Below, piece after piece: positions 6,477 to 55,055 of a DNA stretch of 64,000 nucleotides (position 1 is the first letter of the stretch; the number at the start of each line of letters is the position of its first letter). The stretch is from a candidate division WWE3 bacterium. Its GTDB lineage: Bacteria > Patescibacteriota > WWE3 > UBA101185 > UBA10185. The position numbers and the translations under genes were made by a program. Below the pieces are notes generated by a model that had not been told where the DNA came from, ran no database searches, and saw only the letters and a program-made list of their open reading frames with translations. The DNA is taken from positions 5,280-69,279 of the forward strand of contig JACPGI010000003.1 in NCBI GenBank assembly GCA_016182565.1, given 5' to 3'.

Positions 6477-6741
6477 AATTTTAAAAGCAACATTTAAAAA
6501 AAACTGTATAGGTTGTGAGCTTTGTGTATTTGAAGTTCAGCGGCAGCTTGGAAAAATCGGACTTGAAGGGTCTCCCATCAGGGTATTTCGTGAAAAGGGT
6601 GAGAAAGAAAAAATTGTTTATACAATAGGTATTGACCCATCTGTAAACAAACTTGATGTCGAAAAAATAGAGGGCGTTTGTCCCACAATGGTTTTTACTA
6701 TTGAGGATGAATCAAAGGAAGCAAATGACTACATTGAATAA
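6469..6741 (+). CDS. Small single-cluster [4Fe-4S] ferredoxin
   Basis: CIGCELC...CP pattern (CxxCxxC...CP). The ATG at 6469 overlaps the pgk stop by 8 nt (ATGGGTAA). Confidence 0.6.
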   Translation: MGKILKATFKKNCIGCELCVFEVQRQLGKIGLEGSPIRVFREKGEKEKIVYTIGIDPSVNKLDVEKIEGVCPTMVFTIEDESKEANDYIE

Positions 6742-11659: not shown

Positions 11660-12223
11660 TCATAAAATGTATGTTTGTACTTTCATTTGCAAAATAGATG
11701 CATCCTTCGTTTTATTTTTTTCTGTTCTTATCCAGTCTATTTTAGTAAAACGTTCCATTTGTTCTACTGCTTCCACCATCTCAGGAAGTTGTAATAACGA
11801 TCCCACTAACTCCACACTTATTGATATTTCCCCTTTTTCCACACCAATTAGATTTACACGATTTACAATAAACCCGGATTTAGATGTGGCCATAATAAAT
11901 TCTTCTAAAAATTTATCAAAATCTACTTTGAACGGTAATTTTTTATTTAAAACAAAAACCCCCTCCCCATTGTCCCTAAGAAGTATTTCCCCCCCCTCAG
12001 TCTTTCTATTTTTCTCAAGCATAATTCTTTCTATGTTTAATAATTCTTTTTTGTACTTGATGTTTTTGGCTAAATTCTCTGACGCAGGTTTTATCCCAAA
12101 AAGTAAAGATACAAAAATAAGAATTGTGGCAAGTGCAGAAGTAAAGATTACGTTGTTTAAGGGTTTATTTTCTATTTCTCGTTCGTATGTTGCTAAAAAT
12201 TTTGACCCTAAAATAAAACTCAT
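11660..12223 (-). CDS. PilO-like bitopic membrane protein (TM, coiled coil, alpha/beta domain)
   Basis: The layout (single TM, coiled coil, C-terminal globular domain) matches type IV pilus PilO. Sequence similarity is weak. Confidence 0.35.
   Translation of the reverse strand: MSFILGSKFLATYEREIENKPLNNVIFTSALATILIFVSLLFGIKPASENLAKNIKYKKELLNIERIMLEKNRKTEGGEILLRDNGEGVFVLNKKLPFKVDFDKFLEEFIMATSKSGFIVNRVNLIGVEKGEISISVELVGSLLQLPEMVEAVEQMERFTKIDWIRTEKNKTKDASILQMKVQTYIL
11989..11996. repeat. Homopolymeric C8/G8 tract inside the coding sequence of the PilO-like gene
   Basis: CCCCCCCC on the plus strand is GGGGGGGG on the coding strand (TEGGEIL). It is unusual in this AT-rich genome and is a candidate slipped-strand site. 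Confidence 0.5.
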
Positions 12224-12810
12224 TTTAGTGTTAACTCCAATGTTGAAATAAATTTTTTGTTTGCAATGCTTAAATAGGCCGTTTTTATACTAATTTCTTG
12301 GGCTATATTATTTTCTAAAAGGGAACTAATTATTGCAGAGACTTCCAGAGGATTTTCAGTCTCAGTTGATATTTGAATCACACTTGGCCTTATATCTAGC
12401 TTTGAAAGCACTTCCGGATTTGGCGTGTACTTAAATAATTTAAATACGGTATCTGCAAGTCGTGGCGAAGTTTTTTCCAGTTTTTTTAATTTAGTAATTT
12501 TGTCTATTACGATTTGAATTTCTTGGCTCTGTTTACTCCTTATTGTAAGACTTGTTTCCAACGCTCTTACATTTTTTTCAAGAACGGAAACATCGGCTGC
12601 TATTCTTGAATTTATAGCAATAAAGACCAGAAAGACTACTTGAATAATCACTACTAGTATTTTTACTACTGTGGCAAATTTAATATGATACCGTTCAATT
12701 ATTGGAATCACCGAGTTTGTAGAAAGAGAGTGGAGTAGATTAGGACTTCTTGTTGGTTGAAGCTTTTGATTTTCTTGCTGGTTTTGATTCTTTGATTGGT
12801 TTTGATCCAT
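12220..12810 (-). CDS. PilN-like or FtsL-like bitopic membrane protein (short cytoplasmic N-terminus, TM, long coiled coil)
   Basis: Called from the layout only. The annotated N-terminus overlaps the rpsT 3' end, so the real start is probably downstream. Confidence 0.3.
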   Translation of the reverse strand: MDQNQSKNQNQQENQKLQPTRSPNLLHSLSTNSVIPIIERYHIKFATVVKILVVIIQVVFLVFIAINSRIAADVSVLEKNVRALETSLTIRSKQSQEIQIVIDKITKLKKLEKTSPRLADTVFKLFKYTPNPEVLSKLDIRPSVIQISTETENPLEVSAIISSLLENNIAQEISIKTAYLSIANKKFISTLELTLK

Positions 12811-38194: not shown

Positions 38195-40420
38195 ATGGCA
38201 AAAAGAGGAAGGAAACCAAAAAATAAGGTCAAAGTAAGCCCCGAGACCACAAAATCGGTTTTTGCAATATTTTTATTGATGGCTGCAGTTATTGTGTTAA
38301 TATCCTTTTTTGCTCCTGACTATGCACTCAACAAAAAAATCCAAAAAGTCATCCTTGGACTTTTTGGTTGGGCGGCTATCTTTATCCCATTTATTATGGC
38401 TATTGGGGGGCTACTTTACCTCCATCTTTTTAAATCAAAAATTGTACAATTAAAAACTTTTCTTGGGCTTTTGTTCTTTATGTTTTTTGCAAGCTCTCTT
38501 GCTTCCAGCATAGGAATTAAAAGTGGCAAGGTTGGAAATAGTGTTGATGAATTTTTATCTGATTCTATAAGTTCAGGTGGGTCTTTTGTGATGCTTTTTG
38601 CACTTACTGTTGCGACAGTTTTTTTTATTTTTAATGTTTCGTTTGCTCAGATATCCGAATTTTTTGCATTTATATTAGAAAAGCTTTCTTTTAAAAAAGA
38701 AAAAAAATCTAGGGGATTTTCAGTGGATGATGATATAAAGATATCAACTGGTTCCCCAAACCCTGATAGTGATGAATTTGTGGAAGATGGGGCAAAGGAC
38801 AATTTAGAAGACAATCAAGATATCAGTGAAAATCCTGAAACTCCTGCCACCTTTGAGGTGATACCATCTCTTTCTGAGCCAAAATCTGCAAAACTTGAAA
38901 TAACTCCAGAAGCTATACTTGCAACTGCAAAATCAACAAAACCGGGTTTGCCATATTCAGATCGTGTTTGGGAAAATCCTCCACTTGACTTGCTTTCTGA
39001 TCCATCGACAGTCCCAATTGACAGGGGAGATGTTATGGAACGCGCTAAGATAATTGTTGCAACACTTAGATCTTTTGGTATAGATTCCAAAGTCTCGGAA
39101 ATTAATTTTGGTCCATCTGTAACACAATATGCACTTGAAGCAGGATCCGGGGTTCGTATTGCAAAGGTTGCTAACTTACAAAATGATATAGCCTTAGCTC
39201 TAGCCTCACCGACCGGATCAGTTAGAATTGAAGCCCCAATACCCGGTAAGTCTCTTATTGGAATTGAAGTCCCAAATAATACAAGAGTACCTGTCTGTTT
39301 CAAAGAAATTTTTAATTCCGATGCAATGCGGGGTATGAAGTCCAAGAGGGGCATTGTTTTAGGTAAAGATGTATCAGGAGCTCACGTTGTTTATGATATT
39401 GCTAAGATGCCCCACCTTTTAGTGGCCGGATCAACAGGATCAGGCAAATCAGTGTTTCTCCACTCATTAATATTTAGTATTTTGTACAGATGCAGTCCAC
39501 AAGAATGCAAATTTTTATTTATTGATCCAAAGAGAGTTGAGCTTGTACATTATTCCGGTATACCACATTTACTTGCTCCTGTTGTGACAGAGACAGATAA
39601 AGCCCCCGCACTTTTTAGGTGGCTTGTAAGTGAGATGGAAAAAAGGTACAAACTTTTAGAACAAGCTAAAGTAAGAAATATAGATGGATATAACGAGAAA
39701 ACAGGTTTTCAGGTAATGCCATATATTGTTGTAGTTGTTGATGAGCTAGCAGAAATTATGATTTCTGATCCGCAGGCAGTAGAAAAAAGTATCGTTAGAT
39801 TAGCGCAGCTTGCAAGGGCAGTCGGAATACATTTGGTGCTTACTATTCAAAGACCAAGTGCTGATGTTTTAACTGGGCTAATTAAAGCAAATATCCCATG
39901 CAGAATTGCATTTGGAGTCACAAGTCAGGTGGATTCTAGGGTCATTATTGATCAACCGGGTGCCGAAAAACTTCTTGGAAAGGGTGACATGCTTTTTGTT
40001 CCACCCGATGCCGCAAAACCAGTAAGGATTCAAGGTGCTTTCGTATCCGAAAAGGAGATTGCAAATGTAGTTGCGTACCTTAAACAATCGGGTTTTGAAC
40101 CAGAACTCAATCATGAGATTTTTGAAAATAAAGACCAGGGTAGAAGTTTAGCGGCAGGTGGCGAGGGAAAAGATCCGCTATTTGATGAGGCAATTGAGAC
40201 AATTCTTAGTGCTCAAAAAGCTTCAGCCTCCCTTCTTCAAAGAAGATTGCAGATAGGCTATGCACGTGCCGCAAGAATTTTGGATGAACTTGAAGCATCC
40301 GGTGTTATTGGTTCCGCCCAAGGAAGTAAACCCAGGGATATTTTAGTAAGTCAAAAAGGACAGTCAACACATCAAGAATTTGATAACTTAGCCCCTCAGG
40401 AAGAACATGTGATTTATTAA
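38195..40420 (+). CDS. ftsK: DNA translocase FtsK/SpoIIIE
   Basis: N-terminal TMs, a linker, GSTGSGKS Walker A and a C-terminal gamma winged-helix domain. Confidence 0.9.
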   Translation: MAKRGRKPKNKVKVSPETTKSVFAIFLLMAAVIVLISFFAPDYALNKKIQKVILGLFGWAAIFIPFIMAIGGLLYLHLFKSKIVQLKTFLGLLFFMFFASSLASSIGIKSGKVGNSVDEFLSDSISSGGSFVMLFALTVATVFFIFNVSFAQISEFFAFILEKLSFKKEKKSRGFSVDDDIKISTGSPNPDSDEFVEDGAKDNLEDNQDISENPETPATFEVIPSLSEPKSAKLEITPEAILATAKSTKPGLPYSDRVWENPPLDLLSDPSTVPIDRGDVMERAKIIVATLRSFGIDSKVSEINFGPSVTQYALEAGSGVRIAKVANLQNDIALALASPTGSVRIEAPIPGKSLIGIEVPNNTRVPVCFKEIFNSDAMRGMKSKRGIVLGKDVSGAHVVYDIAKMPHLLVAGSTGSGKSVFLHSLIFSILYRCSPQECKFLFIDPKRVELVHYSGIPHLLAPVVTETDKAPALFRWLVSEMEKRYKLLEQAKVRNIDGYNEKTGFQVMPYIVVVVDELAEIMISDPQAVEKSIVRLAQLARAVGIHLVLTIQRPSADVLTGLIKANIPCRIAFGVTSQVDSRVIIDQPGAEKLLGKGDMLFVPPDAAKPVRIQGAFVSEKEIANVVAYLKQSGFEPELNHEIFENKDQGRSLAAGGEGKDPLFDEAIETILSAQKASASLLQRRLQIGYARAARILDELEASGVIGSAQGSKPRDILVSQKGQSTHQEFDNLAPQEEHVIY

Positions 40421-41339: not shown

Positions 41340-44300
41340 ATGTGTATGAAAACTTTGATTAAGGTTCTAACCCTACTTTTTTTGTTTCTTATTACTTTAA
41401 TGTCTAACACCAGATTTTCTTTTGCTGTTGATCTAGATGTTTATACTGAGCCGACTAGTTACGTCTATGATGCCACTGATAACGCCTCCCTTGTGATTGA
41501 AGATGTTTCGGGGGATGGGGCAGACGATATGCTGTATTTTTCAGGTGACAACAGTGGAACGATGTATGTGTACCTAAATGGTAACTTACCCCAAACCGGT
41601 GAAGTTCTTAGCACTGCGCTTACAGGATATAATGTTAGGTATACTAATTTGGGCACTAATTTGTACGGACAACATCGTATCGCCACTGGAGATATTGATA
41701 ATGATGGCTCTACTGATATTTTGGTTTCAACAGAATCCGCTCTTTACGGGTTTTTAGCAGATGATATTGCTGCATATCAGAATCAGACGCTACAGACGGT
41801 GAATGTTTCAACAACCCCCGCTGCCTACCTGTTTAAAATGTACAGAGCCGGTCTTCAAATTGGATATAGTCACGGCCAGGCTTTTTACTTGACTGATATT
41901 TCAGGGGATGGGGCAAATGACATTGTACTAAGCGACGACAATAATTTTTGGATTTATTATGTTAATAACAGCATCTTTGGTAGTGTGAGCCACGGTACTC
42001 AACTAAACCTTGCCACTTCATCAAACTACAATGTTTTGATGACTTCAGGATTTAGTGGGATTATGGAAGATGGTGATGGGTTTACTGTGGGAGATTTTAC
42101 AGGCGATGGTAAATCTGATGTCGTGGCTCTTATTAGTAATCTATCTTACGGAACAATAAATGTTGTACTTGGATCTCAGTTGAGTGCAATTGCGGGGACA
42201 GGAAATTCCTTAGACCTCACTAGTGCTGCAAACTCATCAATAAGAATTAAAGGCACTAGTACACTTGCTTTCTACGAGAATTACACTGGTTTGGGGATAT
42301 ACGATGTGACTGGGGACGGTGATCCAGATTTGGAAGTTGCCTTAGGTGGGACTAGTGGATCAGGTCCAGGTTATTTGTATGTGTTTTCAAATGAATTAGC
42401 TCAAACTTGGGAGGGGGTCACTGGAACAGACGTTTTGCTTAGTACAAATACCGTTTATTCCTACTCGATTTCTGGTGAAGGGTTTAGTGGTGGCAATTAT
42501 GGTTTCGCTGCAAATAATGGGTTTCATGTGGCTGATATAAATGAGAACGGTATAAACGACCTTGTGATCGGAGATGATTACTACAGCACCGGTTGTACTA
42601 ATTGTGGTGTTGCCTATGTTATATTGGATAACTTGTTAGCTGATTTTGCTGTATCATCTGCGCCTAGTAATACATTTTCCTTAGGAAATTCTGCATATTT
42701 TACTCTTAAGATAAAAGGAGCAGCCAATAGTGCACGGGCCACAAGCACTAGTAGCCAGGGCAATGGTGGTATTTTCTTAGGCGATGTGAATAGTGATGGT
42801 TATAACGACCTAGTTGTTACATATAGTGATGGTTGGAGCTTATATTTGAGTGATAGGTTTGTAGATTTAGGAATAACTACAGGAACTTCTTGGACAACTG
42901 CTACCAATGTAGATCGTAGGTATACGGGCTCTTGGTGTGGTGCTTGTCGGCTTTCAGTGGGTGATTTAAATGACAACGGGGCCAACGACCTAGCAATTAG
43001 TAACTCGGGGCGTGATGAGAGCTATTTTTTCCTTGGAGGTTCAACAATAAATTCCCTAGGGGCAAGTTTAGGGGCTGAGGTGCAGTCTAATGGTGATGAT
43101 GCAACTAGCGACCCGCAAGGGGGCACAAAAAGCGTCATTTTAACAAAATCCAGTATTCCAGTCGCCTTAGTTACAACATCCTTTACTGCTATTGATGGTT
43201 TAGATTGGTCTGTTATCACTGCTGATGTAGATTCGGATGCCGGTAAAAGCGTGGCAACAAATATTGAAAGTGCTGATGGAACAGGAGCTTCTCATAGCCT
43301 GTACGTACCAAAGCTTGCGGGGGCTCTAGGTGTGTATGTTTGTCCTGATGCCACAAATCTTGCAGGAGTAACTGATTCATGTACAAACGGCTATGAACTT
43401 TCCGAAGGCGAAAGCGGTCTTACCGAGGTAACCATTGACTCAGTAGATTACTGGAGAATTTCAGGACTAACTGGAACAGGTGCTCAAAATGTATTGGACA
43501 CAGATCCTCCAGTAAATGGTAATTTCGTGATAAATGGTGGTGCTGCTTATACTACTTCAACCAGTGTTACTTTAACAATCTCAGCTACTGATGAGCTATC
43601 TGATGTTTCTCAGATGGAGATCTCCGAAGACTCTAGTTTTACTGGTGCCTCGTGGGAAGCTTATTCGACTAGTAAGAGTTTTACCTTATCATCAACCTCT
43701 GGTACCAAAACCGTCTACATAAAATACAAAGACAGTAATGATAACGAGTCATCATCCTATTCAGATAGTATTATTTTAGACAGTAACTCTCCTGGGAAAC
43801 TTCGCATAGGTCTAAAGGAAGATAAACTATTTACCGTAGGCGAAGCTCACTTTGAGCTTAAGGATAGGAAATTCAAGCTATATGTAGATACATTTGATAG
43901 TACAACAGATGTAGACCAAATTAAGGTATCAGAACATAGTGATTTTGAAGAGGATGACTATGAAGACTATGATGGTGATCTTAACATCAAGTTGTCAAAC
44001 GGTGCTGAAAAGAAGTATCTCTACTTTAGATTAAAAGATAGTGCAGGAAACACCTCGAAAGTTTATAAACAACTCGTCAAATACAATCCAAACTATACTA
44101 AAAACTTAATCCAAGAAGACGATGATGACATGGAAGAAAACCCAATTTTAAATGGTATGACAGAAGATACAGATGTAGTTCTTGAAAAGATCGGAACTAT
44201 TCAATATTCTACAGATCACAAAAACTATTTCTATACAGAAAATTTCTTGACCCTTTTAGGTAAATCCAGTGGAATTGTATCAATATCAGTAGACGGAGAT

Positions 44301-44639
44301 TTCAGTGATTCTACATACTCTAATGATACTAATGTCTTCTCACTTTCATTAAACCTTACAGACGGTAAACACGATATTGTAGTAGGTAATACAAGCTTTT
44401 CTATAACAATAGACCCATCAGGTAACTCCTTTCCTACTTCATTGAAAACTGTGCTTGGCATACAAACGTCTTCTGAGCAGATATCCGGGGACGGTGATGA
44501 AAAAAGAGTTGAAACCCCAGATAATAAAGAGTTGATCCAAGCTGATGGAGCTTCACCGGAAGTGACTGATGGTACACAACAAACAGGCGGAACATTTTTT
44601 GGGAATACATGGCAGTGGGTCAAATCTTTGTTTGATTAG
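41340..44639 (+). CDS. Large secreted/surface protein (1099 aa) with about 7 FG-GAP (integrin-alpha-like, Ca-binding DxDxDG) repeats and a long Ser/Thr-rich C-terminal region
   Basis: Signal peptide, then repeats TGDIDNDGSTDIL, DISGDGANDIV, GDFTGDGKSDVV, YDVTGDGDPDLE, ADINENGINDLV, GDVNSDGYNDLV and GDLNDNGANDLA. Confidence 0.7.
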   Translation: MCMKTLIKVLTLLFLFLITLMSNTRFSFAVDLDVYTEPTSYVYDATDNASLVIEDVSGDGADDMLYFSGDNSGTMYVYLNGNLPQTGEVLSTALTGYNVRYTNLGTNLYGQHRIATGDIDNDGSTDILVSTESALYGFLADDIAAYQNQTLQTVNVSTTPAAYLFKMYRAGLQIGYSHGQAFYLTDISGDGANDIVLSDDNNFWIYYVNNSIFGSVSHGTQLNLATSSNYNVLMTSGFSGIMEDGDGFTVGDFTGDGKSDVVALISNLSYGTINVVLGSQLSAIAGTGNSLDLTSAANSSIRIKGTSTLAFYENYTGLGIYDVTGDGDPDLEVALGGTSGSGPGYLYVFSNELAQTWEGVTGTDVLLSTNTVYSYSISGEGFSGGNYGFAANNGFHVADINENGINDLVIGDDYYSTGCTNCGVAYVILDNLLADFAVSSAPSNTFSLGNSAYFTLKIKGAANSARATSTSSQGNGGIFLGDVNSDGYNDLVVTYSDGWSLYLSDRFVDLGITTGTSWTTATNVDRRYTGSWCGACRLSVGDLNDNGANDLAISNSGRDESYFFLGGSTINSLGASLGAEVQSNGDDATSDPQGGTKSVILTKSSIPVALVTTSFTAIDGLDWSVITADVDSDAGKSVATNIESADGTGASHSLYVPKLAGALGVYVCPDATNLAGVTDSCTNGYELSEGESGLTEVTIDSVDYWRISGLTGTGAQNVLDTDPPVNGNFVINGGAAYTTSTSVTLTISATDELSDVSQMEISEDSSFTGASWEAYSTSKSFTLSSTSGTKTVYIKYKDSNDNESSSYSDSIILDSNSPGKLRIGLKEDKLFTVGEAHFELKDRKFKLYVDTFDSTTDVDQIKVSEHSDFEEDDYEDYDGDLNIKLSNGAEKKYLYFRLKDSAGNTSKVYKQLVKYNPNYTKNLIQEDDDDMEENPILNGMTEDTDVVLEKIGTIQYSTDHKNYFYTENFLTLLGKSSGIVSISVDGDFSDSTYSNDTNVFSLSLNLTDGKHDIVVGNTSFSITIDPSGNSFPTSLKTVLGIQTSSEQISGDGDEKRVETPDNKELIQADGASPEVTDGTQQTGGTFFGNTWQWVKSLFD

Positions 44640-44699
44640 ATCTAACTGTGATTTTCACATATTTTATTTTTTACATTCATCCTGAAGATCTAAATTACA

Positions 44700-45020
44700 T
44701 TGTGGGACTTGCTCAAACTTCTTACTCATGAAATACTTAATGCACAAAGGAATCTGCCCAATATGGATATACAAGCAATTTTAGTTCTAATACTTTCAAT
44801 TCTCACAATAAATTTAGTAGTAGTAGGTGTTTATGTAATTTTAGTTTTAAGGGAACTGCGCGAAACTATTAAGAAAGCTAATGAGGTCATGGATACGGTG
44901 ACTTCTGTAAGTTCTTTAGTATCAAATCCGTTTGGAACAATAAGTAGTTTTATTACTGCTTTAATTGATGGTTATAAAGCAGTAAAGGAAGTTAGGACTA
45001 TAAGAAGTCTAAAAGATTAA
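44700..45020 (+). CDS. Small bitopic membrane protein, DUF948-like (TM + coiled coil)
   Basis: 106 aa with an N-terminal TM and a helical C-terminus. It is first in a four-gene overlapping operon. Confidence 0.35.
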   Translation: MWDLLKLLTHEILNAQRNLPNMDIQAILVLILSILTINLVVVGVYVILVLRELRETIKKANEVMDTVTSVSSLVSNPFGTISSFITALIDGYKAVKEVRTIRSLKD

Positions 45021-45023
45021 GTT

Positions 45024-45464
45024 ATGGAATGTAAGCATTGTGGTAAAAATCATACAGATGCCGGAAGTTTTGTCCACGGAGCTATGTGGGGAGCTTTAGC
45101 CGGGGCTATTCTTGGCATGCTTTATGCTCCTGAAAAAGGTGAGGATAACAGGGCAAAATTAAAGGAAGCATTTGACGGTGCAGAGGCCAAGGGAAAAGAA
45201 TTAGGTGGAAAAGTACGTGATGAATTAAAAGATCTTACCGGAGATATAAAAAAGACCACAAAGGAGATAGCGGAGGCAGCTAAGCCTTTTATATCTGAAC
45301 TTGAAAAAAGTATTAAACCGGTTTTAGATAAAGCTAGATCCTCAAGCCAAGATGTACAACTGCAGGTCATGGAGAAAATAGAACAGCTTGTTGAAGATGC
45401 TTCTTCAGGATATGATGACGACAGGAATATGAAGAAGTTTTTCAAGGGCACCAAAAGAAAATGA
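45024..45464 (+). CDS. YtxH-like stress-associated membrane protein
   Basis: GAMWGALAGAILGMLYAPEKGEDNRAKLKE matches the YtxH N-terminal signature and is followed by a charged coiled coil. Confidence 0.45.
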   Translation: MECKHCGKNHTDAGSFVHGAMWGALAGAILGMLYAPEKGEDNRAKLKEAFDGAEAKGKELGGKVRDELKDLTGDIKKTTKEIAEAAKPFISELEKSIKPVLDKARSSSQDVQLQVMEKIEQLVEDASSGYDDDRNMKKFFKGTKRK

Positions 45465-46708
45465 ACTCGTTTAAAATAATCCTCGCAATAAAAGACTCTT
45501 TAAAAATTGCCTACAAGAATAAAATTTTGTGGGTTTTTGCTCTAATGCTTGCGGGTACTTCTGCTGGGTCAAATTTTAATACCGCAAGAAATCTTGATCC
45601 AAACAAGGACAATACAAAAACCTCCGATAAAATCATATCCATGACCGACCGAGGCAGAAAAAATGAAAGCAAGCTTTTAGCAGTAGGCGAAGGTATAACT
45701 TCAGAAGAAAATAAGTTACTTAACGATTTAGATTTGGTAATTCCAGAAAAAGACTTTGCCCAAGACGAATTTGAGCCTACTGTAAATGCAGAAAACAGTG
45801 GTGAAACACTTGATGTGACTTCTAAAAATTTTATATTTATGCAGGCGCTACAAATACTCTACCTAACCCCACCTCAAGAATATCTTCAAATATTTAAAAC
45901 AAACTTAATCACTTTAGGTTTTGTCGCAGTTGTTGGTATTACAGTTGCAATTGTGGTCGGGTTAATAATTCATGCTTGGGGTTATTTAGCTATTTTAGTT
46001 GGTTCAAAAGATGCAGTAGATGGGCAGGACATTAATTTAAAAAAACTCTCGGATAAAGGAATGACAAATTATCTAAGAATGGTAAGGTTTAAAATTCTTA
46101 TGTTTTTGACTTTTCTTATTACAATATTTGTATTTATGATAATAGGTGTTGCTCCGTTTATATTTTTTGAAAAAAATATAATTACGACTCTAATCTACAT
46201 ACCACTTGCTGCTATTTATATAACAATATTTATATCCCTTATCTATATCACAAAAATTGGCCCATATTTTATAACTTTTGAGGATTCTAAGGCCAGAGAG
46301 GCATTTTATTTAGGATGGGACTTTTTTAAGAAAAACTTTAAGCTTGCTATTTTGACAGATTTGGCAAGTTTTGTACTTGTTGGCTTAATAACATGTGTGG
46401 TGATTTTGTTTCTTGGCGTTTTGTTTTTTGGAGGTGTTTTTATCTACCCAAGCGTTGTTTCCCTTTTACAAGAGCATTTTGCGCTAATACTTCCTGTTTC
46501 ACTATTTTTGAGTATTTTGCTTATCAGTGTAGTGTTCTCATTCATGGCGTTTACGGGCTTTATACTTACATTTAGATATATATTATGGACAAAGTTATTT
46601 TTTGCATTAAAAGATAAGGACAATGATCAATACCGAGATCACTTCCCATTAAAAACTGATTTAGATTTAACAAATAGTAACAAAATGGAGGTGACAAGTG
46701 TTGCCTAA
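45461..46708 (+). CDS. Polytopic membrane protein (415 aa; signal/anchor, hydrophilic loop, about 6 TM), function unknown
   Basis: Hydropathy by eye. ATGA overlap with the upstream gene. Confidence 0.45.
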   Translation: MNSFKIILAIKDSLKIAYKNKILWVFALMLAGTSAGSNFNTARNLDPNKDNTKTSDKIISMTDRGRKNESKLLAVGEGITSEENKLLNDLDLVIPEKDFAQDEFEPTVNAENSGETLDVTSKNFIFMQALQILYLTPPQEYLQIFKTNLITLGFVAVVGITVAIVVGLIIHAWGYLAILVGSKDAVDGQDINLKKLSDKGMTNYLRMVRFKILMFLTFLITIFVFMIIGVAPFIFFEKNIITTLIYIPLAAIYITIFISLIYITKIGPYFITFEDSKAREAFYLGWDFFKKNFKLAILTDLASFVLVGLITCVVILFLGVLFFGGVFIYPSVVSLLQEHFALILPVSLFLSILLISVVFSFMAFTGFILTFRYILWTKLFFALKDKDNDQYRDHFPLKTDLDLTNSNKMEVTSVA

Positions 46709-47282
46709 TTCTAATTCGAGTATGAACGCGGGTTTTTTGATAAGAGCCTTAGCTTATTTATTAGATAAGCTTTTAGGTCTAATTTTGCTTCTTTCTATAA
46801 TTTTAATATATTCATATTTTGTAACTCTTGAGGACGGTATGGAGTTTATAAAAATATTTGGAAATATCACAACAATAGTAATCTCACTACTGCTTTTGGC
46901 AACACTTATAAACCTTATCTATTACACCTACTTTTTATCAAGGTTCGGCGGGACACTGGGTAAACTACTTCTTGGAATACAAGTTTTTGACAAGGAAACC
47001 GGCAGATTTCTTGATACAAAAAAAGCGTTTTTTCGAAGTTTTGCGGGATACAGCTTTTCAGGTCAGTTTATGGGATTAGGATTTCTTGCAATAAATAAAA
47101 AGAGGAATAATCTTGCTTGGCATGATGAATTATTTAACACTGAGGTAAAAGCTGTGGGGTCGGTTTGGCCTGGAGTTATACTAACCCTTCTCTTTTTAGC
47201 CATTAACGCATTCGTTGTTATACCGGTTATTTTTTCTCTAGTATCCAAAACGTTTTCTGCATTTGGTACCCCATCTTTATGA
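46698..47282 (+). CDS. RDD-family membrane protein
   Basis: RFGGTLGKLLLGIQVFDKETGRFLD core with flanking TMs. Confidence 0.6.
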   Translation: MLPNSNSSMNAGFLIRALAYLLDKLLGLILLLSIILIYSYFVTLEDGMEFIKIFGNITTIVISLLLLATLINLIYYTYFLSRFGGTLGKLLLGIQVFDKETGRFLDTKKAFFRSFAGYSFSGQFMGLGFLAINKKRNNLAWHDELFNTEVKAVGSVWPGVILTLLFLAINAFVVIPVIFSLVSKTFSAFGTPSL

Positions 47283-47373: not shown

Positions 47374-47793
47374 ATGAGTGATTTACTGTCCCAACAAAAT
47401 TCACAGAACGATCAGAATTTATCCGGAGTTCAAAATACTTCACCTACCCCATTTATCCCATCGACCCAATCTTATAGTCTTGGTGCCGAAAACCCACAGA
47501 TTGTTGAGACACCAACTCCAGTTGAGTTAAATCCGGAAAGTAAAGAACTTTTGCGAAAACCAGAAATACCAGTGCCAGCTGCACTTAAAGAAGAATCCAA
47601 TCAAGCAGAAAAAAATAACCCAGTTTTTACAATTGTTCCAGACCTAGCAGTAAAAGTAGCTATTCCAAAAGTTGAACCAAAAAAAGCAACCCTACATCAT
47701 ATTGAAACTCCCGGGAATGACCTTACAAAAAAAGCAGACGAAGAAGAAGAGGATTTTATAAAGCATGTTGAGGAAATCCACACTATTGTATGA
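47374..47793 (+). CDS. Hypothetical Pro/Gln-rich low-complexity protein, translationally coupled (ATGA) to the downstream ATPase
   Basis: The ORF has no TM. Its stop overlaps the ATPase start. Confidence 0.4.
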   Translation: MSDLLSQQNSQNDQNLSGVQNTSPTPFIPSTQSYSLGAENPQIVETPTPVELNPESKELLRKPEIPVPAALKEESNQAEKNNPVFTIVPDLAVKVAIPKVEPKKATLHHIETPGNDLTKKADEEEEDFIKHVEEIHTIV

Positions 47794-50195
47794 GTAGCCT
47801 AATGGACACACTTTACACAGGATTTTGGATTGTTTTTTATATTGTGTTTCTCATCACTTTTTTTTGGGTTATTTTTCTTGCAGTTTCAAGAAGATTTAGA
47901 AACAAAAGAGAACATGAAGAAAGATACAGCCTTACTTTCATGCAAATAAAACTACCGCGTGAGAATGAGGTTGAGATAAAAGCTGCTGAGCAGATGTTTT
48001 CTGGACTCATTGGTATTAAAAAACCGTTTTGGGGAGCTCTATTTACAGGGCAGCATAGGGTTTCATTTGAGATAGTGTCTAAGGCTGAAGGAATAGGCTT
48101 TTATGTTGTAACGCCGGATTCACTTGCCGGTCTTGTTGAAAAGCAAATAAATGGAGCATACCCGGATGCTGAAATTGATATTGTTGATCCAAGCGAGGTC
48201 TGGGATCGTGGGGCGTACACGTCAGTCATGGAACTACGTCTTGCAGGGCCTTCTTATTACCCTATTAAAGTTTATGAAAATATGGGTAGTGATACCATGA
48301 GTGGCATCACTTCTGTCATGAGTAAGCTTGAGGCAGATGAGGCTCTTGCAATCCAGCTTGTAATAAGCCCATCAGGAGAGGCTTGGAGAAATCATGGTTA
48401 TAGATTTATAGGAAATGTTAAAGCCGCTCAAGCAAATCCCGAAAAGTCTTCTAAGGTCGACGCTACTTTTATCGAGGGGGTTGAAAAAGAAGTTGCTAAA
48501 CCTGGTTTTGATGTTGCAATAAGAGTAATCTCCTTAGCTAAAGATAAAATTACCGCCGACTCTCATTTACAAAATGTCCACTCGGCCTTCGAACAATTTA
48601 CAAATCCAAAATACAATAAATTTAAACAAGTTAGCTTCATGAGTTCTCAAAGAATTGTTGACGACTTCATTTTTAGAAGGCTAGATGCCCTGGAAGTTTC
48701 AATTCCGGCTTTTGACATCCCGCTTTATAGAAATACTTCCCTTTTAAATATTGAAGAATTAGCAACAGTGTTTCATTTCCCAAATAAAAATGTCCAGACC
48801 CCAAAGATTATGTGGCTGCAGTCAAGAAAAAGCGCAGCCCCATCAAATGCACCAAAGGAAGGTATGTACCTCGGGAAAAATATATTTAGAGGTGTGGAGA
48901 CTAAAATCCACTTAAAACCGGATGATAGAAGGAGACATACTTATATTATTGGCCAGACCGGTACAGGAAAGTCACAACTTTTGATGTATATGGCAGTGCA
49001 AGACATTGTTGCAGGTCACGGAGTATGTGTTATTGATCCACACGGAACTGATATAGATGATATTTTGAAAAAGATTCCACCGGAAAGAATGGACGATGTT
49101 ATTTTGTTTGATGTGTCGGATACTACAAGGCCTCTTGGTTTAAATATTTTAGAGGCGGAAGATGATGATCAAAGAAATATGATCATAAATTCGTTTATAG
49201 GGCTTTTATATAAACTTTATGATCCAAACCATTCAGGTATTATCGGCCCACAGTTAGAGCGCGCTGTTCGAAACATAATGCTTACAGCAATGGTTGACCC
49301 TGAAAGCACCATGATTGATGTATTACGGCTTGTAATCGACGGTGAGTATATCAAAAAGTTTCTGCCAAAAATAAAAGATCCGCTTGTGAAAAGGTATTGG
49401 ACAGACGAAATGGCAAAAACTTCTGATTTTCATAAAAGCGAAAAAGTAGGCTATTTTGTTTCGAAGTTTGACCGTTTTGTTACCGAAAAAGTAATGCGTA
49501 ATATCATAGGGCAGCCAAAATCCGCTCTAAATTTTCCTAAAATTATGGCAGAAAAGAAGATACTTCTTGTTGATTTATCAAAAGGTAAGATCGGGGAAGA
49601 AAATTCAAATTTCTTAGGTCTTATTTTAGTTCCAAGAATATTATCAGCCGCTATGGCAAGACATACTTTAATAGGCAAAGAAGATTTTCCGGACTTTTAT
49701 CTATATGTCGATGAGTTTCAAAATTTTGCAACTCCGGACTTTGCGACTATTTTATCGGAAGCTCGTAAGTACAAGTTAAACTTAATTGTTGCCAACCAAT
49801 TTATAGCTCAGCTTACAGATGACATTAAAAATGCAGTATTTGGCAACGTTGGTACTACTATGGCATTTAGAGTAGGCGCGGATGATGCAGAGTATCTTGA
49901 AACTCAGTTTGCACCGTTTACTAAGGCTGATCTTATAAATAATACTGTCGGTAATTACTACATGAAGCTTCTTGTGAATGGCCAGCCAACCCCACCATTT
50001 TCTGTAAATATAAATTGGGAGGAAATACAGGCCGTAAAAAAATATCCAGGTGTTGACGAGAGGCTTAGAGAAATGTCTAGGATGAAATACGGCGTACCTG
50101 TAGAAGAGGTTGATAAATATATAAATCTTCGTGCCGGCTTTGGTGATGAGTTTGAAACCAAAGATCCAAGAGATATTATAAAAGAGTTGTTTTAA
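47790..50195 (+). CDS. VirB4/VirD4-superfamily (TraG/TraD-like type IV secretion/conjugation) P-loop ATPase, N-terminal TM anchor
   Basis: N-terminal TM, an approximately 350-aa N-domain, Walker A GQTGTGKS, Walker B LYVDEFQNFA and the conserved ARKYKLNLIVANQFIAQL motif typical of T4SS VirB4/coupling-protein ATPases. It is 801 aa. Confidence 0.6.
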   Translation: MSSLMDTLYTGFWIVFYIVFLITFFWVIFLAVSRRFRNKREHEERYSLTFMQIKLPRENEVEIKAAEQMFSGLIGIKKPFWGALFTGQHRVSFEIVSKAEGIGFYVVTPDSLAGLVEKQINGAYPDAEIDIVDPSEVWDRGAYTSVMELRLAGPSYYPIKVYENMGSDTMSGITSVMSKLEADEALAIQLVISPSGEAWRNHGYRFIGNVKAAQANPEKSSKVDATFIEGVEKEVAKPGFDVAIRVISLAKDKITADSHLQNVHSAFEQFTNPKYNKFKQVSFMSSQRIVDDFIFRRLDALEVSIPAFDIPLYRNTSLLNIEELATVFHFPNKNVQTPKIMWLQSRKSAAPSNAPKEGMYLGKNIFRGVETKIHLKPDDRRRHTYIIGQTGTGKSQLLMYMAVQDIVAGHGVCVIDPHGTDIDDILKKIPPERMDDVILFDVSDTTRPLGLNILEAEDDDQRNMIINSFIGLLYKLYDPNHSGIIGPQLERAVRNIMLTAMVDPESTMIDVLRLVIDGEYIKKFLPKIKDPLVKRYWTDEMAKTSDFHKSEKVGYFVSKFDRFVTEKVMRNIIGQPKSALNFPKIMAEKKILLVDLSKGKIGEENSNFLGLILVPRILSAAMARHTLIGKEDFPDFYLYVDEFQNFATPDFATILSEARKYKLNLIVANQFIAQLTDDIKNAVFGNVGTTMAFRVGADDAEYLETQFAPFTKADLINNTVGNYYMKLLVNGQPTPPFSVNINWEEIQAVKKYPGVDERLREMSRMKYGVPVEEVDKYINLRAGFGDEFETKDPRDIIKELF

Positions 50196-52238: not shown

Positions 52239-53462
52239 ATGTTTCAACTGCCATTTAATTTCAAACAGCAAAAAAAACCTTCAAAATTTTTAACCATTGA
52301 TATAGGTTCCAATGAAGTTAAAGTGATAGCTTTTAATGTTGTTACACAGGATGGCCATCTTACTCCCAAAGCTTCGGTTCTTGGTATTGCAAAGAAGGAA
52401 ATCTTGCCCGAGACAACAAGATCGGGCTCAATCACAGACTCAAACGATGTAATTCAAGCCTTGAAAACTGCTATTACCCAAGCTTCACCCGAGGACGAAA
52501 CCATTAAAGATGCAGTTTTTGGTGTTAGCGGAATTTTGGGAACTGGATTTATGATTACAGTTAAGGTGGGGCGCAAAAGCACATCCCAGATCTCTAAAAA
52601 AGAACTCCAAAATAATTTTGAAAAGATTCATGAGGAAGCTTACGATATAGCTCAAGGGATCTTTAGGGATATGACCGGCCTTGAAGACCTCGACCTTAAG
52701 ATGATTACTTCTTCTGTAGTTTATGCAAAGTTGGATGGCCATCTTATGGACGATTTGGAAGGAAAGACTGGTAGAAAACTTGAGATTGCGGTTTATACTG
52801 CGTTTACCCCAACATACCATTTTAATACAATTCACGATATCGCAAGTAAATTAGGTTTAAACCTTATTGCGATTGCTCCTACCACATATTCTCTTGCAAA
52901 AGCTCTGTCGTACTCAAAAGGTGCCGACTATGATGCAGTGCTAATTGATGTTGGTGGGGACATAACAGATGTAGCTGTAGTCTTTGGGGGAGGTATTGTT
53001 GCAAGTAGGAGTATTGAGATAGGTGGCAACCATTTCACACGTGCTATAGAAAAAGGGATGCTATTACCACCACGAGAAGCTGAACTTCGCAAGATTTCTT
53101 ATTCATTTGAGAGACTAAATGAGTCCGATGAGATGCTTGTCCAAGGTCACATTGATAATTTGCTAGATATTTGGCTCCACGGCCTTGATGTTGTGTTTTC
53201 CGACTTTACCGGAGTTAAGATGTTTTCTTCCAATGTATATGTTGCGGGTGGTGGGATAATACTTCCTGATCTTTTTGAGGTTTTAAGTAAAGAGCCTTGG
53301 GCAAAATCTGTACCATTTAAATCTCCCCCAGAGTTTAGTAAACTGTCAATTGACGATTTAAAGCTTGTCGAAGATATGAGCGGAAATTCCTATTCTTTGG
53401 AGTATATTATCCCGGCTGCCCTATCAATTGTTTATCTTGAAGCGAAAGGTTTAATAGATTAA
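52239..53462 (+). CDS. Actin-like ATPase, FtsA-like (or PilM-like)
   Basis: IDIGSNEVKV phosphate-1, and LIDVGGDITDVAVVFGGG...SIEIGGNHFT phosphate-2/adenosine motifs. Size 407 aa is closer to FtsA. Confidence 0.55.
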   Translation: MFQLPFNFKQQKKPSKFLTIDIGSNEVKVIAFNVVTQDGHLTPKASVLGIAKKEILPETTRSGSITDSNDVIQALKTAITQASPEDETIKDAVFGVSGILGTGFMITVKVGRKSTSQISKKELQNNFEKIHEEAYDIAQGIFRDMTGLEDLDLKMITSSVVYAKLDGHLMDDLEGKTGRKLEIAVYTAFTPTYHFNTIHDIASKLGLNLIAIAPTTYSLAKALSYSKGADYDAVLIDVGGDITDVAVVFGGGIVASRSIEIGGNHFTRAIEKGMLLPPREAELRKISYSFERLNESDEMLVQGHIDNLLDIWLHGLDVVFSDFTGVKMFSSNVYVAGGGIILPDLFEVLSKEPWAKSVPFKSPPEFSKLSIDDLKLVEDMSGNSYSLEYIIPAALSIVYLEAKGLID

Positions 53463-55055
53463 ATGGAAAAACTTGAATTTTTAATACATGACGATGTAAT
53501 TGCAATAATAGATAAGATCAGAAATTTTTCGGGTTCTAATATAGAACTTTTTTTTCCAGATGGCTCCGTAGTTTTTGATAATGGATTAAACTTGCGTCTT
53601 ATAAAAAAAGAATGTGACAAACTAAATAAAACTGTTTTATTTTCTACCAATGATCCTGAAGGTAAATACCTTGTTTCTTTAGTCGATGATGTCACAAGGG
53701 AAGTTTCTGGAGATAGCAATTCCGACTTTGTTTCAAGAGAGGTTTCTTTGGATGAAGTAACAGGTATAACAACTAAAAACTCTATTAAATCCTCAAAATT
53801 TACTATGTCGACTGTGTTACCAAACCTTTCTCGTATACGAGGTATAAAAACTCCACTAATCAAGTTTCCAAAACTTGGGTTAAACTTTGGATTAATAGTG
53901 ATGGGGATTTTATTTGCTGGGTTAATTGCTGGTTTTGCGTATTGGTATTTTTGGACTATTCCTAAGGCAGATGTAAATATAGTTTTAAAATCAGAACCTC
54001 TTGTAAAAAGTCTTCAGATAACAGTTGAAAACGGTGGTAAAAATAGTGCGTCCCTAAGGACTTTAGAGGGGCGTATCTTTTCCTCTACACTCACCGAGAC
54101 TGTAAAAACAGATGCGACAGGTTCAAAACTTATTGGTGAAAAAGCAGGGGGCAAAATAAAAGTTATCAATAGAACAACAACCGCTAAAACTTTTAAAAAA
54201 GGCGAAAAACTGCATTATAAAGAAGATGATGATTTATTGTTTAGTATCGATGATGATTTGACGGTACCCGGAGCACAGTTACAGGATCCACTTGATGTAA
54301 ATTCTGCCTTGGTACCAGGAAATGCTGAGGTTTCTACAACTGCCACAGAGTTTGGCAAGAGCTACAACATATCAAAAGGCAAAACGTTTGAGTTTGAAAA
54401 ATATAGCACCACTGACTACATTGCCGAAGTCACGACAAGTTTTTCTGGAGGCTCAAGTGAGCAAGTTAAGGTAGTAACTCAGGTGGACTTAGACAAACTT
54501 GCAACAGATATTGCACTTGTTTTTAAGGAAAAAGGTCCCCAAGCAGTAAAATCTGGTGTACAGCAAGGTTGGGTTTTAATAAACGGTTCAGAGACAAGCA
54601 CGAGTATAAGTAAAAAATATAATAAAAAAGTTGATGACGTTTCTAATGAAGTCGAACTGGTCGAGACAGTAAACTACCAGGGGCTTGGATACAGTAGTAA
54701 TGGTTTAAATTCCCTTCTTAACGATCTTTTGGCCGAGTTTATTACAAAAGACTATGAACTTTCTAAGGAAAGTAGAGACATCAAGGCCGAAGTTTTAGGT
54801 AATACTGATAAAACAGTTTTGACTACGTCAAAAGCAGATCTTCAAGTGACCGTGAAGGCTTTCATTGTTCCAGTTTTAAATGCCGATAATATAAAAAATA
54901 GTCTTCTAGGAGTTTCTTTTACGGAGGCCGAGCGACTTTTAAATGAAATAAAAAATATTAAGACATATGGTATAAACATGACACCAAAAGTCTCACTATT
55001 AAAACGAATTCCAAAAAATATCGCTAACGTAAATTTAAACATTACCTTGGAATAA
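53463..55055 (+). CDS. Hypothetical bitopic membrane protein (130-aa cytoplasmic domain, TM, about 370-aa Thr/Lys-rich extracytoplasmic domain), coupled to the FtsA-like gene
   Basis: TAA-ATG adjacency with the upstream gene and a TM LIVMGILFAGLIAGFAYWYFW. Confidence 0.45.
   Translation: MEKLEFLIHDDVIAIIDKIRNFSGSNIELFFPDGSVVFDNGLNLRLIKKECDKLNKTVLFSTNDPEGKYLVSLVDDVTREVSGDSNSDFVSREVSLDEVTGITTKNSIKSSKFTMSTVLPNLSRIRGIKTPLIKFPKLGLNFGLIVMGILFAGLIAGFAYWYFWTIPKADVNIVLKSEPLVKSLQITVENGGKNSASLRTLEGRIFSSTLTETVKTDATGSKLIGEKAGGKIKVINRTTTAKTFKKGEKLHYKEDDDLLFSIDDDLTVPGAQLQDPLDVNSALVPGNAEVSTTATEFGKSYNISKGKTFEFEKYSTTDYIAEVTTSFSGGSSEQVKVVTQVDLDKLATDIALVFKEKGPQAVKSGVQQGWVLINGSETSTSISKKYNKKVDDVSNEVELVETVNYQGLGYSSNGLNSLLNDLLAEFITKDYELSKESRDIKAEVLGNTDKTVLTTSKADLQVTVKAFIVPVLNADNIKNSLLGVSFTEAERLLNEIKNIKTYGINMTPKVSLLKRIPKNIANVNLNITLE

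Follow-up and report, generated by a model that had tools for sequence, protein, structure and literature searches.

An ATPase of 801 amino acids (aa) encoded by a candidate division WWE3 bacterium lies within the type IV coupling protein (T4CP) branch (VirD4/TrwB/TraD) and not with FtsK or HerA, and in WWE3 its gene is chromosomally fixed and vertically inherited. It was found in a 64-kb stretch of DNA, referred to here as the window. The orphan T4CP in WWE3 is a further case of a gene class already reported to be near-universal in Patescibacteria; what is new here is its VirB4-like N-terminal domain and its motif-bearing partner protein. The explanation that we lean toward, with modest confidence, is that this vertically inherited, relaxase-free T4CP energizes the VirB4-type type IV secretion system (T4SS) of Patescibacteria, with a small disordered protein as its dedicated partner.

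Both open reading frames (ORFs) of the pair pointed out in the preliminary description were confirmed, as were their ATGA overlap, the N-terminal transmembrane (TM) segment, and the ATPase motifs. The stop codon of the 139-aa ORF overlaps the ATG of the 801-aa ORF at positions 47790-47793. An identical database protein is called from Met5 (797 aa), a start that leaves an 8-nt gap and no overlap with the 139-aa ORF. At 45 of 65 WWE3 loci, the ORF located 5' of the ATPase gene overlaps the nearest in-frame ATPase start, the commonest overlap being 14 nt. Counts of promoters and terminators in a scan of 44.6-52.3 kb were not above chance, and operon boundaries could therefore not be called. The features of the locus are as follows.

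47374..47793 (+): acidic low-complexity (disordered-type) partner protein, 139 aa, translationally coupled to the ATPase gene (ORF, ATGA overlap)
47719..47790 (+): linear motif conserved at the C terminus of the partner, DLTKKADEEEEDFIKHVEEIHTIV (consensus D.LT..AD.EEE.FI..VE..H), from comparison of WWE3 loci
47790..50195 (+): membrane-anchored T4CP-family ATPase, 801 aa (DUF8128 N-domain plus VirD4/VirB4-type ATPase)
47823..47888 (+): single N-terminal TM segment, aa 12-33 (sequence, and model helix 2-44)
47922..48839 (+): N-domain, aa 45-350, Pfam DUF8128, VirB4-NTD-like fold
48951..48974 (+): Walker A/P-loop GQTGTGKS, aa 388-395, invariant in 48 homologs and aligning with the P-loops of TrwB and DotL
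49164..49550 (+): all-alpha segment inserted into the ATPase domain, aa 459-587, where T4CPs have their all-alpha domain
49698..49715 (+): Walker B YLYVDE, aa 637-642, aligned to TrwB LWLFIDE, with D641 and E642 invariant
49761..49814 (+): ARKYKLNLIVANQFIAQL block, aa 658-675, with R659 and Q670 aligned with the Arg and Gln of TrwB GRKAGLRVVAGLQ

The assignment of the 801-aa protein to the VirB4/VirD4 superfamily, made in the preliminary description, was borne out, and by sequence the protein is closest to coupling proteins. In Pfam, it matched TraG-D_C at 27.9 bits (cut-off, 22) and TrwB_AAD_bind at 22.0 bits (cut-off, 20.5). The best NCBIfam matches were T4CP models (SXT_TraD, 1e-14; CD1115 VirD4-like, 5e-10), and a profile of the ATPase family searched against PDB sequences matched DotL (3e-6) and TrwB (9e-5) best. 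Every curated NCBIfam T4CP equivalog or subfamily cut-off was missed widely (e.g., SXT_TraD, 53.9 versus 366), which counts against the favored explanation. PF02534 (T4SS-DNA_transf) did not match this ATPase and did match some of its relatives and a homolog from Embleya. Relatives are named by NCBI either [quoted passage not shown] or "DUF87 domain-containing protein."

In a profile comparison with VirB4, T4CP, and HerA/FtsK families that had been set beforehand, FtsK/HerA was not the best match. A housekeeping translocase of the FtsK or HerA kind was ruled out by the ranking of profiles and folds and by the presence of a separate, true FtsK in the window (38195..40420); the FtsK_SpoIIIE motor with alpha and gamma domains that characterizes FtsK/SpoIIIE proteins was not found in the ATPase. 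A HerA-, DptH-, or MADS-type ATPase belonging to a DNA repair or antiphage defense system is very improbable. A PADLOC match to mad8 (7.8e-17) and a fold similarity to DptH/HerA reflect the superfamily level only, and the partner genes are absent, with no NurA, Sir2, DUF4297, Dnd, or other MADS genes near the ATPase gene. The DUF87 and HerA matches are confined to the P-loop region (aa 368-419), and the T4CP matches are better by sequence. Furthermore, the protein carries a TM helix and a VirB4-NTD-like domain in place of a HAS-barrel, and its gene is a syntenic, conserved core gene rather than a gene of a variable island.

The ATPase contains the motifs GQTGTGKS, YLYVDE-FQNF (aa 637-646), and ARKYKLNLIVANQFIAQL. 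HMMER aligned its YLYVDE and ARKYKLNLIVANQFIAQL blocks to the Walker B and GRKAGLRVVAGLQ blocks of TrwB, and K394, D641, E642, R659, and Q670 showed no variation among the 48 homologs. We take R659 to be the arginine finger and Q670 the sensor Gln, carrying their catalytic roles over from TrwB. The AF2 model (pLDDT 85.9) consists of an N-terminal helix (aa 2-44), an alpha/beta N-domain (aa 48-330), and the ATPase domain, whose RecA-fold NBD has both Walker motifs (A and B) intact and carries the all-alpha insertion. The hydrophobic core of the N-terminal helix is followed by a basic RRFRNKR stretch, which by the positive-inside rule would put the remainder of the protein on the cytoplasmic side; the topology predicted from sequence is thus a single TM anchor, N-out and C-in. 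An N-terminal anchor is therefore present yet different from that of the classical coupling proteins TrwB (R388), VirD4, DotL/IcmO, and Cag-beta, which carry two TM helices, and this difference also speaks against the favored explanation. The classical T4CPs further lack a domain of ~300 aa between the membrane and the NBD, which the WWE3 ATPase has, and share only ~15% sequence identity with it.

This ~300-aa N-domain is of the VirB4 type. Structure prediction, which the preliminary description had called for, gave a fold whose best resemblance is to the VirB4 NTD, and a Foldseek search with the ATPase model ranked full-length TrwK/VirB4 first (E 3.5e-17). A literature search on DUF8128 found no paper. 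In VirB4, as seen in structures of the R388 system, VirB3 and VirB8 dock onto the NTD. That the ATPase is no coupling protein and is instead the VirB4 of this organism, the signature assembly ATPase of a T4SS that has diverged, we consider improbable. VirB4 models scored below their cut-offs (AAA_10, 13.4 versus 27.5 bits; TIGR00929, 18.1 versus 643), and CagE_TrbE_VirB was unmatched in the profile scan. Unlike VirB4/TrwK, the WWE3 protein carries its own TM helix, and its gene is unlinked to VirB3, VirB6, or VirB8; the TrsD, VirB3, VirB6, and pilin genes that typically flank VirB4 genes in Patescibacteria (PMC12102498) are not found beside it. Homologs of the ATPase on plasmids also coexist with a separate AAA_10 VirB4 and occupy, next to the relaxase gene, the place of a T4CP.

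These full-length homologs (~25% identity, N-domain included) are T4CPs of conjugative plasmids of monoderm bacteria and archaea. BLASTP aligned a T4CP of an Embleya plasmid (Embleya sp. NZ_CP108778, WP_331738717) with 24.8% identity over query aa 44-768 (E 4e-66) and one of a Bacillus subtilis plasmid (NZ_OX419568, WP_213380696) with 25.4% identity over query aa 91-775 (E 1e-45). In the haloarchaeal plasmid pHTS138, the protein is divided between two ORFs, the N-domain being an ORF of its own directly 5' of the ATPase ORF. Together, these DUF8128-type plasmid T4CPs match the WWE3 protein along its whole length at 22-30% identity, with E values as low as 4e-66; the match takes in the N-domain, the ATPase core, and the all-alpha insertion, and the Pfam signature of DUF87, TrwB_AAD_bind, and TraG-D_C is shared. 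Their genes adjoin those for VirB4 (AAA_10), PrgI or TcpE, and a Replic_Relax relaxase, so that the WWE3 ATPase is homologous from end to end with genes in the T4CP position of conjugation operons. No experimental characterization of these plasmid T4CPs was found in the literature. Unlike them, the WWE3 gene is chromosomal, lies among housekeeping genes without a relaxase, and has instead a lineage-specific acidic partner.

The preliminary description had also held that no conjugative element flanks the ATPase gene, and this proved correct within the 64 kb. Pfam scans of essentially all ORFs of at least 120 aa identified no relaxase, integrase, VirB4, VirB3, VirB6, or VirB8 in the window, and tblastn of the window with the plasmid relaxase, VirB4, TcpE, and PrgI proteins found nothing. 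No tRNA genes and no compositional break were detected in the window, which consists entirely of housekeeping genes. An integrated conjugative element was therefore ruled out. The nearest relatives outside the CPR are plasmid conjugation genes, as a decaying remnant of such an element would predict, but the catalytic residues are all intact, the GC content is native, and no repeat boundary was found. The gene is, moreover, the most conserved of its neighborhood and holds its syntenic position across WWE3 species down to ~57% identity, and these conservation data effectively refute a remnant, which we would count as extremely improbable.

The gene order of the locus is conserved across ~70 WWE3 loci, with DUF948, YtxH, an FtsA/PilM-like protein, a 530-aa TM protein, FtsK, a RodZ-like protein, and RuvX as neighbors. 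The median identity of the ATPase within WWE3 is 60.7%, and it exceeded that of FtsK, RNase J, AlaRS, and RuvX in paired comparisons (from 16 of 17 up to 53 of 53 loci). A housekeeping context is also seen in Woykebacteria, Dojkabacteria, and Doudnabacteria, whereas the WWE3 gene order is lost in these three and in CPR3. Because the synteny is confined to WWE3, it was treated as inheritance, which it probably is, and a functional linkage of the ATPase to its WWE3 neighbors was rejected. In other WWE3 genomes, variable large ORFs of 330-1180 aa were observed directly 3' of the ATPase gene. The complete WWE3 genome RAAC2_WWE3_1 (CP006914.1) carries a copy of the ATPase with 58% identity.

The protein encoded upstream had been described as Pro/Gln-rich; it is instead acidic, disordered, and modestly Pro-rich (Pro 11%, Glu 12%, Gln 6%), and the net charge of its family averages about -13. 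No match to it was found in Pfam, NCBIfam, or PADLOC. At nearly all WWE3 loci, a same-strand ORF of 70-269 aa abuts or overlaps the ATPase start. The consensus motif occurs in the last 35 aa of this upstream ORF at 46 of 65 WWE3 loci and at none of 11 more distant loci. No further occurrence turned up in the six-frame ORF set of the window or in ~2,000 ORFs from related loci, so a general C-terminal signal can be dismissed, and the motif is specific to WWE3. A profile of the C-terminal 48 aa searched against 5.8 billion proteins returned nothing at E <= 1e-3, a result that is uninformative because the profile is too short for a database of this size. The coupled partner is thus real, as first described, but restricted to the lineage: Dojkabacteria and Doudnabacteria keep the ATPase and lack the partner, which weighs against the explanation that we favor. 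Under that explanation, the acidic disordered protein would be a dedicated partner of the ATPase (an adaptor, a regulator, or a client), with its conserved C-terminal peptide as the predicted binding site for the ATPase.

Patescibacteria rely on hosts to supply nucleotides, lipids, and amino acids, and in the one tractable species epibiotic growth requires the T4SS. A 2025 census (Quinonero-Coronel et al., PMC12102498) reported 5,713 T4CP homologs in 2,918 of 3,035 Patescibacteria genomes (96%), only 148 of them near virB4. The same study found VirB4 in 2,417 of the genomes (~80%), elsewhere on the chromosome, with relaxases rare, and suggested exaptation of the unlinked homologs. The WWE3 ATPase presents the same phenomenon, and the unusualness first attributed to it is accordingly weakened; the window is one more example for the published census and not a new kind of system. 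The census gives counts only and is silent on the DUF8128/VirB4-NTD-like N-domain, on the synteny within WWE3, on how strongly the gene is conserved, and on the partner with its motif. It counted about two homologs per genome, and the DUF8128 family may not be the (only) family included. The ATPase had initially been called stand-alone, a term for which 64 kb is too small a scope; ~80% of Patescibacteria have a VirB4-based T4SS elsewhere on the chromosome (PMC12102498). Since T4CP homologs are usually unlinked to the chromosomal VirB4-T4SS, "unlinked" is the safe word. Linkage to a relaxase or T4SS is not strictly defining for a T4CP, whose gene commonly lies far from virB4.

By analogy with TrwB, VirD4, and VirB4, the ATPase would most likely form a membrane-associated hexameric ring that recruits a macromolecular substrate and powers its passage through a translocon. 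The relaxase partner of the plasmid relatives is gone in WWE3, and we infer that the ATPase works without one. The likeliest translocon would be the VirB4-type T4SS of Patescibacteria, whose genes would lie at another chromosomal site, and the VirB4-like N-domain may serve as the module that docks to it. No relaxase gene was found at the related loci either. T4SS components were absent within 6-8 kb on either side at every related locus examined and from the window, so the link to a T4SS comes only from homology and the literature. The near-universal occurrence of the gene class in Patescibacteria and its conservation in WWE3 above FtsK and AlaRS make it a plausible missing piece, the coupling ATPase, of their T4SS. 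The essential T4SS cluster of Southlakia has no linked coupling protein or relaxase (PMC10633639). The T4CP homolog of Southlakia, perhaps not of the DUF8128 type, was reported to be nonessential while the T4SS genes are essential (PMC12102498), an observation that speaks against the two having to function together.

It is possible, although unlikely, that the ATPase operates without any T4SS, alone or with other membrane partners, as a membrane-anchored motor for nucleic acids or proteins. Such an autonomous translocase may take up host DNA or RNA or handle the chromosome at division. Its superfamily relatives FtsK, HerA, and TcpA translocate DNA by themselves, but a single TM helix cannot by itself form a channel, and a canonical FtsK is already present. 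The domain that in VirB4 docks VirB3 and VirB8 also fits poorly with independence from a T4SS. In every CPR lineage examined, the gene stands by itself among housekeeping genes, and in WWE3 it belongs to a conserved block with FtsK and the RodZ-like, FtsA/PilM-like, and RuvX genes, than which it is more conserved; these neighbors are, however, not kept beside it in other classes. The dispensability of the Southlakia homolog beside an essential T4SS would suit an autonomous role, as would the presence of T4CP homologs in more genomes than VirB4 (2,918 versus 2,417 of 3,035; PMC12102498).

A broader reading, to which we give only a small chance, joins several of these elements. The DUF8128 ATPase would be a relaxase-independent coupling or energizing ATPase, structurally intermediate between VirB4 and VirD4 through its retention of the VirB4 docking domain, and a core motor of the CPR for host-derived or host-directed macromolecules, for example, in bringing in nucleic acids or exporting effectors where episymbiont and host meet. 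The acidic protein would be its dedicated adaptor or first client, engaged through the C-terminal peptide, and the variable downstream ORFs of WWE3 might be further clients, occupying the slot of the plasmid relaxase gene. Experimental handles are offered by the N-domain resembling a VirB4 docking module, by the architecture common to bona fide conjugative T4CPs, and by the motif-bearing WWE3 partner.

The ATPase and its small partner protein were both found in the window exactly where the preliminary description had placed them, and the motifs that it quoted were present in the translation.

47374..47793, + strand: partner open reading frame (ORF), 139 amino acids (aa)
47790..50195, + strand: ATPase ORF, 801 aa
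47790-47793, + strand: ATGA, the bases shared by both ORFs
ATPase aa 388-395: GQTGTGKS
ATPase aa 637-646: YLYVDEFQNF
ATPase aa 658-675: ARKYKLNLIVANQFIAQL

Residues K394, D641, E642, R659, and Q670 of the ATPase were invariant in an alignment of 48 homologs (58 to 73% identity). HMMER aligned the Walker B block to LWLFIDE of TrwB and the ARKYKL...Q block to GRKAGLRVVAGLQ of TrwB; going by TrwB, the acidic pair of Walker B, the arginine finger, and the sensor glutamine presumably lie in these blocks. An identical database entry begins at Met5 (797 aa), and the four-base overlap is therefore contingent on the choice of start: it holds for the 801-aa protein and is lost if Met5 is used. The small protein had been called Pro/Gln rich; with 11% Pro, 12% Glu, and 6% Gln, it is instead acidic and of low complexity.

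Judged by its sequence, the ATPase is nearest to the type IV coupling proteins (T4CPs). It scored barely above the Pfam cutoffs for TraG-D_C, TrwB_AAD_bind, and DUF87, and its top NCBIfam matches were TraD and VirD4-like models, all far under their curated thresholds, with VirB4 models scoring well below these. When a profile of the ATPase family was searched against solved sequences, DotL (3e-6) and TrwB (9e-5) came first and HerA reached just 0.01 to 0.04, while FtsK and VirB4 were not among the matches. The proposed placement in the VirB4/VirD4 superfamily was thus supported, as the best matches were coupling-protein profiles rather than those of FtsK or HerA.

In the AlphaFold2 model (pLDDT 85.9), four parts can be told apart. 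The N-terminal helix is long and hydrophobic at its core (aa 12-33), after which comes RRFRNKR; aa 48-330 make up an alpha/beta domain; and the predicted RecA-fold ATPase behind it bears an all-alpha insertion (aa 459-587). The N-terminal domain region is spanned in all homologs by Pfam PF26449 (DUF8128). Searched with phmmer against 1.84 billion representatives, aa 1-350 yielded 1,822 matches; among the matches listed, the matched stretch was always N terminal, and the longest matched proteins were ~790 to 1,130 aa. The ATPase therefore resembles VirB4 in its two-domain architecture, whereas it resembles T4CPs in its sequence and in the operon position held by its plasmid relatives. The likeness of DUF8128 to the VirB4 N-terminal domain appears not to have been described before, and our literature search found no paper mentioning DUF8128. 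The protein is an intact, strongly selected, membrane-anchored ATPase of the T4CP family with a VirB4-like N-terminal domain.

Searching plasmids with the ATPase by tblastn returned 307 records, 44 of which had a single match over at least 80% of the query. Homologs from Embleya (24.8% identity, query residues 44-768, E 4e-66) and a Bacillus subtilis plasmid (25.4%, residues 91-775, E 1e-45) both included the N-terminal domain. The Embleya gene order is PrgI family, VirB4 (AAA_10/TraG P-loop), ATPase homolog, Replic_Relax relaxase (PF13814, 2.7e-36), and NlpC/P60 hydrolase; that of the B. subtilis plasmid is ATPase homolog, replication-relaxation family protein, conjugal transfer protein, TcpE-family protein, and AAA_10 VirB4. 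On the haloarchaeal Haloterrigena plasmid pHTS138 (locus L087, 7758-12051), the DUF8128-like domain has an ORF of its own (399 aa), which overlaps the start of a 1,034-aa ATPase ORF ("TraM recognition domain"); beside these lie genes for a 1,099-aa conjugal transfer protein and for a pilin. The domain is thus able to exist as an independent subunit. Because the homology is full length and the homologs sit in gene neighborhoods of the conjugation type, the ATPase belongs to a T4CP lineage, bearing this N-terminal domain, of monoderm and archaeal conjugation systems.

Whereas the Embleya and B. subtilis homologs occupy conjugation operons, the ATPase gene of the window is chromosomal and has no relaxase in the window. 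The best matches of the ATPase belonged to Patescibacteria, candidate division WWE3 among them, and the entire 64 kb is ordinary chromosome: Pfam identified UvrD, GAPDH/PGK/TIM, MurJ, LepA, HrcA-GrpE-DnaK-DnaJ, NusA, IF-2, PNPase, RNase J, a complete FtsK (38195..40420), a RodZ-like protein, AlaRS, an FtsA/PilM-like protein, RuvX, MiaA, a MiaB-like protein, and YceG. Within these 64 kb, Pfam found no relaxase, integrase, VirB4, VirB3, VirB6, or VirB8, tblastn queried with the relaxase, VirB4, TcpE, and PrgI proteins of plasmids found no counterpart, and there were neither tRNA genes nor a compositional break, which bears out the earlier statement that conjugation genes and an integrated element are lacking nearby.

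Across 84 related loci (WWE3 members at 57 to 73% identity), the WWE3 order is (FtsK, RodZ-like), DUF948, YtxH, small ORF, ATPase, (AlaRS, few), FtsA/PilM-like, 530-aa transmembrane (TM) protein, RuvX, and HAD. Within this block, conservation is highest for the ATPase (median identity, 60.7%, versus 53.5% for FtsK, 48.6% for RNase J, 47.0% for RuvX, and 46.1% for AlaRS), and in paired loci it exceeded its comparison gene in 16/17 to 53/53 cases. This conservation and the shared WWE3 gene order rule out that the gene is a mobile-element relic in decay. Family members also occur in CPR3, Woykebacteria, Dojkabacteria/WS6, and Doudnabacteria (33 to 51% identity), where the gene is again solitary among housekeeping genes (PrmC, RF1, L31, HisRS, RecJ). 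As none of the WWE3 neighbors is retained beside it in those classes, the WWE3 synteny is best read as inheritance rather than as a functional link at the operon level.

Around the DUF948-YtxH pair (41340-47282), the window carries genes that the WWE3 order lacks. A 1,099-aa FG-GAP repeat surface protein (41340-44639) comes before the pair; YtxH is separated from the small ORF by a 415-aa protein (45461-46708), which has several TM segments and matched no family, and by an RDD-family membrane protein (46698-47282). Directly after the ATPase lies an FtsA/PilM-like gene in 39 loci and AlaRS in the window. An FtsA/PilM/MreB-like actin-fold protein (407 aa) followed directly by the 530-aa one-TM protein, which has no family match (52239-55055), is kept downstream throughout WWE3; FtsZ was not seen nearby, and the two may form a division pair or one resembling PilM/PilN. 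One WWE3-type locus (L052:4201-8936) carries two tandem copies of the ATPase gene, whose products are 59% and 51% identical to that of the window. In 17 of ~59 informative WWE3 loci, a highly variable ORF of 330 to 1,180 aa begins 3 to 60 nt past the ATPase stop (L004:10418-12595, L008:8386-11034, L017:8446-10914, L023:8428-11973, L029:8421-11786, L050:8420-10582, L053:8352-11453, and others). The seven large ones scanned had no Pfam match; in the plasmid relatives, this slot is filled by the relaxase gene instead.

Nearly every WWE3 locus has a same-strand ORF of 70 to 269 aa that runs up to the ATPase start or overlaps it, with overlap in 45/65 (commonest length, 14 nt). These partner proteins are highly variable, with ~74% disorder-promoting residues and a mean net charge of about -13, and share a C-terminal module, D.LT..AD.EEE.FI..VE..H, 9 to 17 residues from the end, in which 39 to 47 of 47 sequences share the T, A, D, E, F, I, V, and H. 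The motif occurs in 46/65 WWE3 loci versus 0/11 more distant ones and was absent from the rest of the window and from ~2,000 ORFs of related loci. Nonhomologous low-complexity ORFs hold the position in CPR3 and Woykebacteria, and no ORF does in the Dojkabacteria and Doudnabacteria loci. This distribution indicates that the partner, conserved and coupled within WWE3, is real yet lineage specific. From the translational coupling and the motif, we infer that it binds the ATPase via its C-terminal peptide. Such a protein appears to be previously undescribed.

By analogy with TrwB and VirB4, the ATPase would form a hexameric ring at the membrane. Its N-terminal domain may dock it onto a VirB4-type type IV secretion system (T4SS) encoded elsewhere in the genome, where it would recruit a substrate other than a relaxase, and the small protein could serve as an adaptor, regulator, or client. 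Quinonero-Coronel et al. (2025; PMC12102498) reported VirB4, whose clade falls within the monoderm MPF-FATA class, in 2,417 of 3,035 Patescibacteria genomes, 5,713 VirD4-type T4CP homologs in 2,918 genomes (just 148 near virB4), and only 109 relaxases. In Southlakia, they found the T4CP homolog nonessential and the T4SS essential, so that exaptation "cannot be ruled out"; Wang et al. (2023; PMC10633639) described the essential Southlakia T4SS cluster as having no recognizable coupling protein or relaxase. The main rival is that the ATPase is an autonomous motor unrelated to a T4SS, in keeping with a gene that is solitary in every case, with T4CP homologs in more genomes than VirB4, and with the dispensable Southlakia homolog. 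In NCBI, relatives already carry the name [quoted passage not shown] or "DUF87 domain-containing protein". Given this naming and the published census, the ATPase is a further instance of an already reported class. Taken together, what the preliminary description observed is confirmed, and its interpretation finds partial support.

Two other gene groups were observed in the window. On the - strand (11660-12810), a 187-aa ORF matches PilO weakly (E 4e-5), and the 196-aa ORF that precedes and overlaps it matched nothing; the two may encode type IV pilus alignment proteins of the PilN/PilO type. Between PGK and TIM, a 296-aa ORF (6701-7591) matches AFOR_N alone (1.8e-21), the N-terminal domain of aldehyde:ferredoxin oxidoreductase, and is apparently a truncated domain, or one that stands alone, within the glycolytic gene row.
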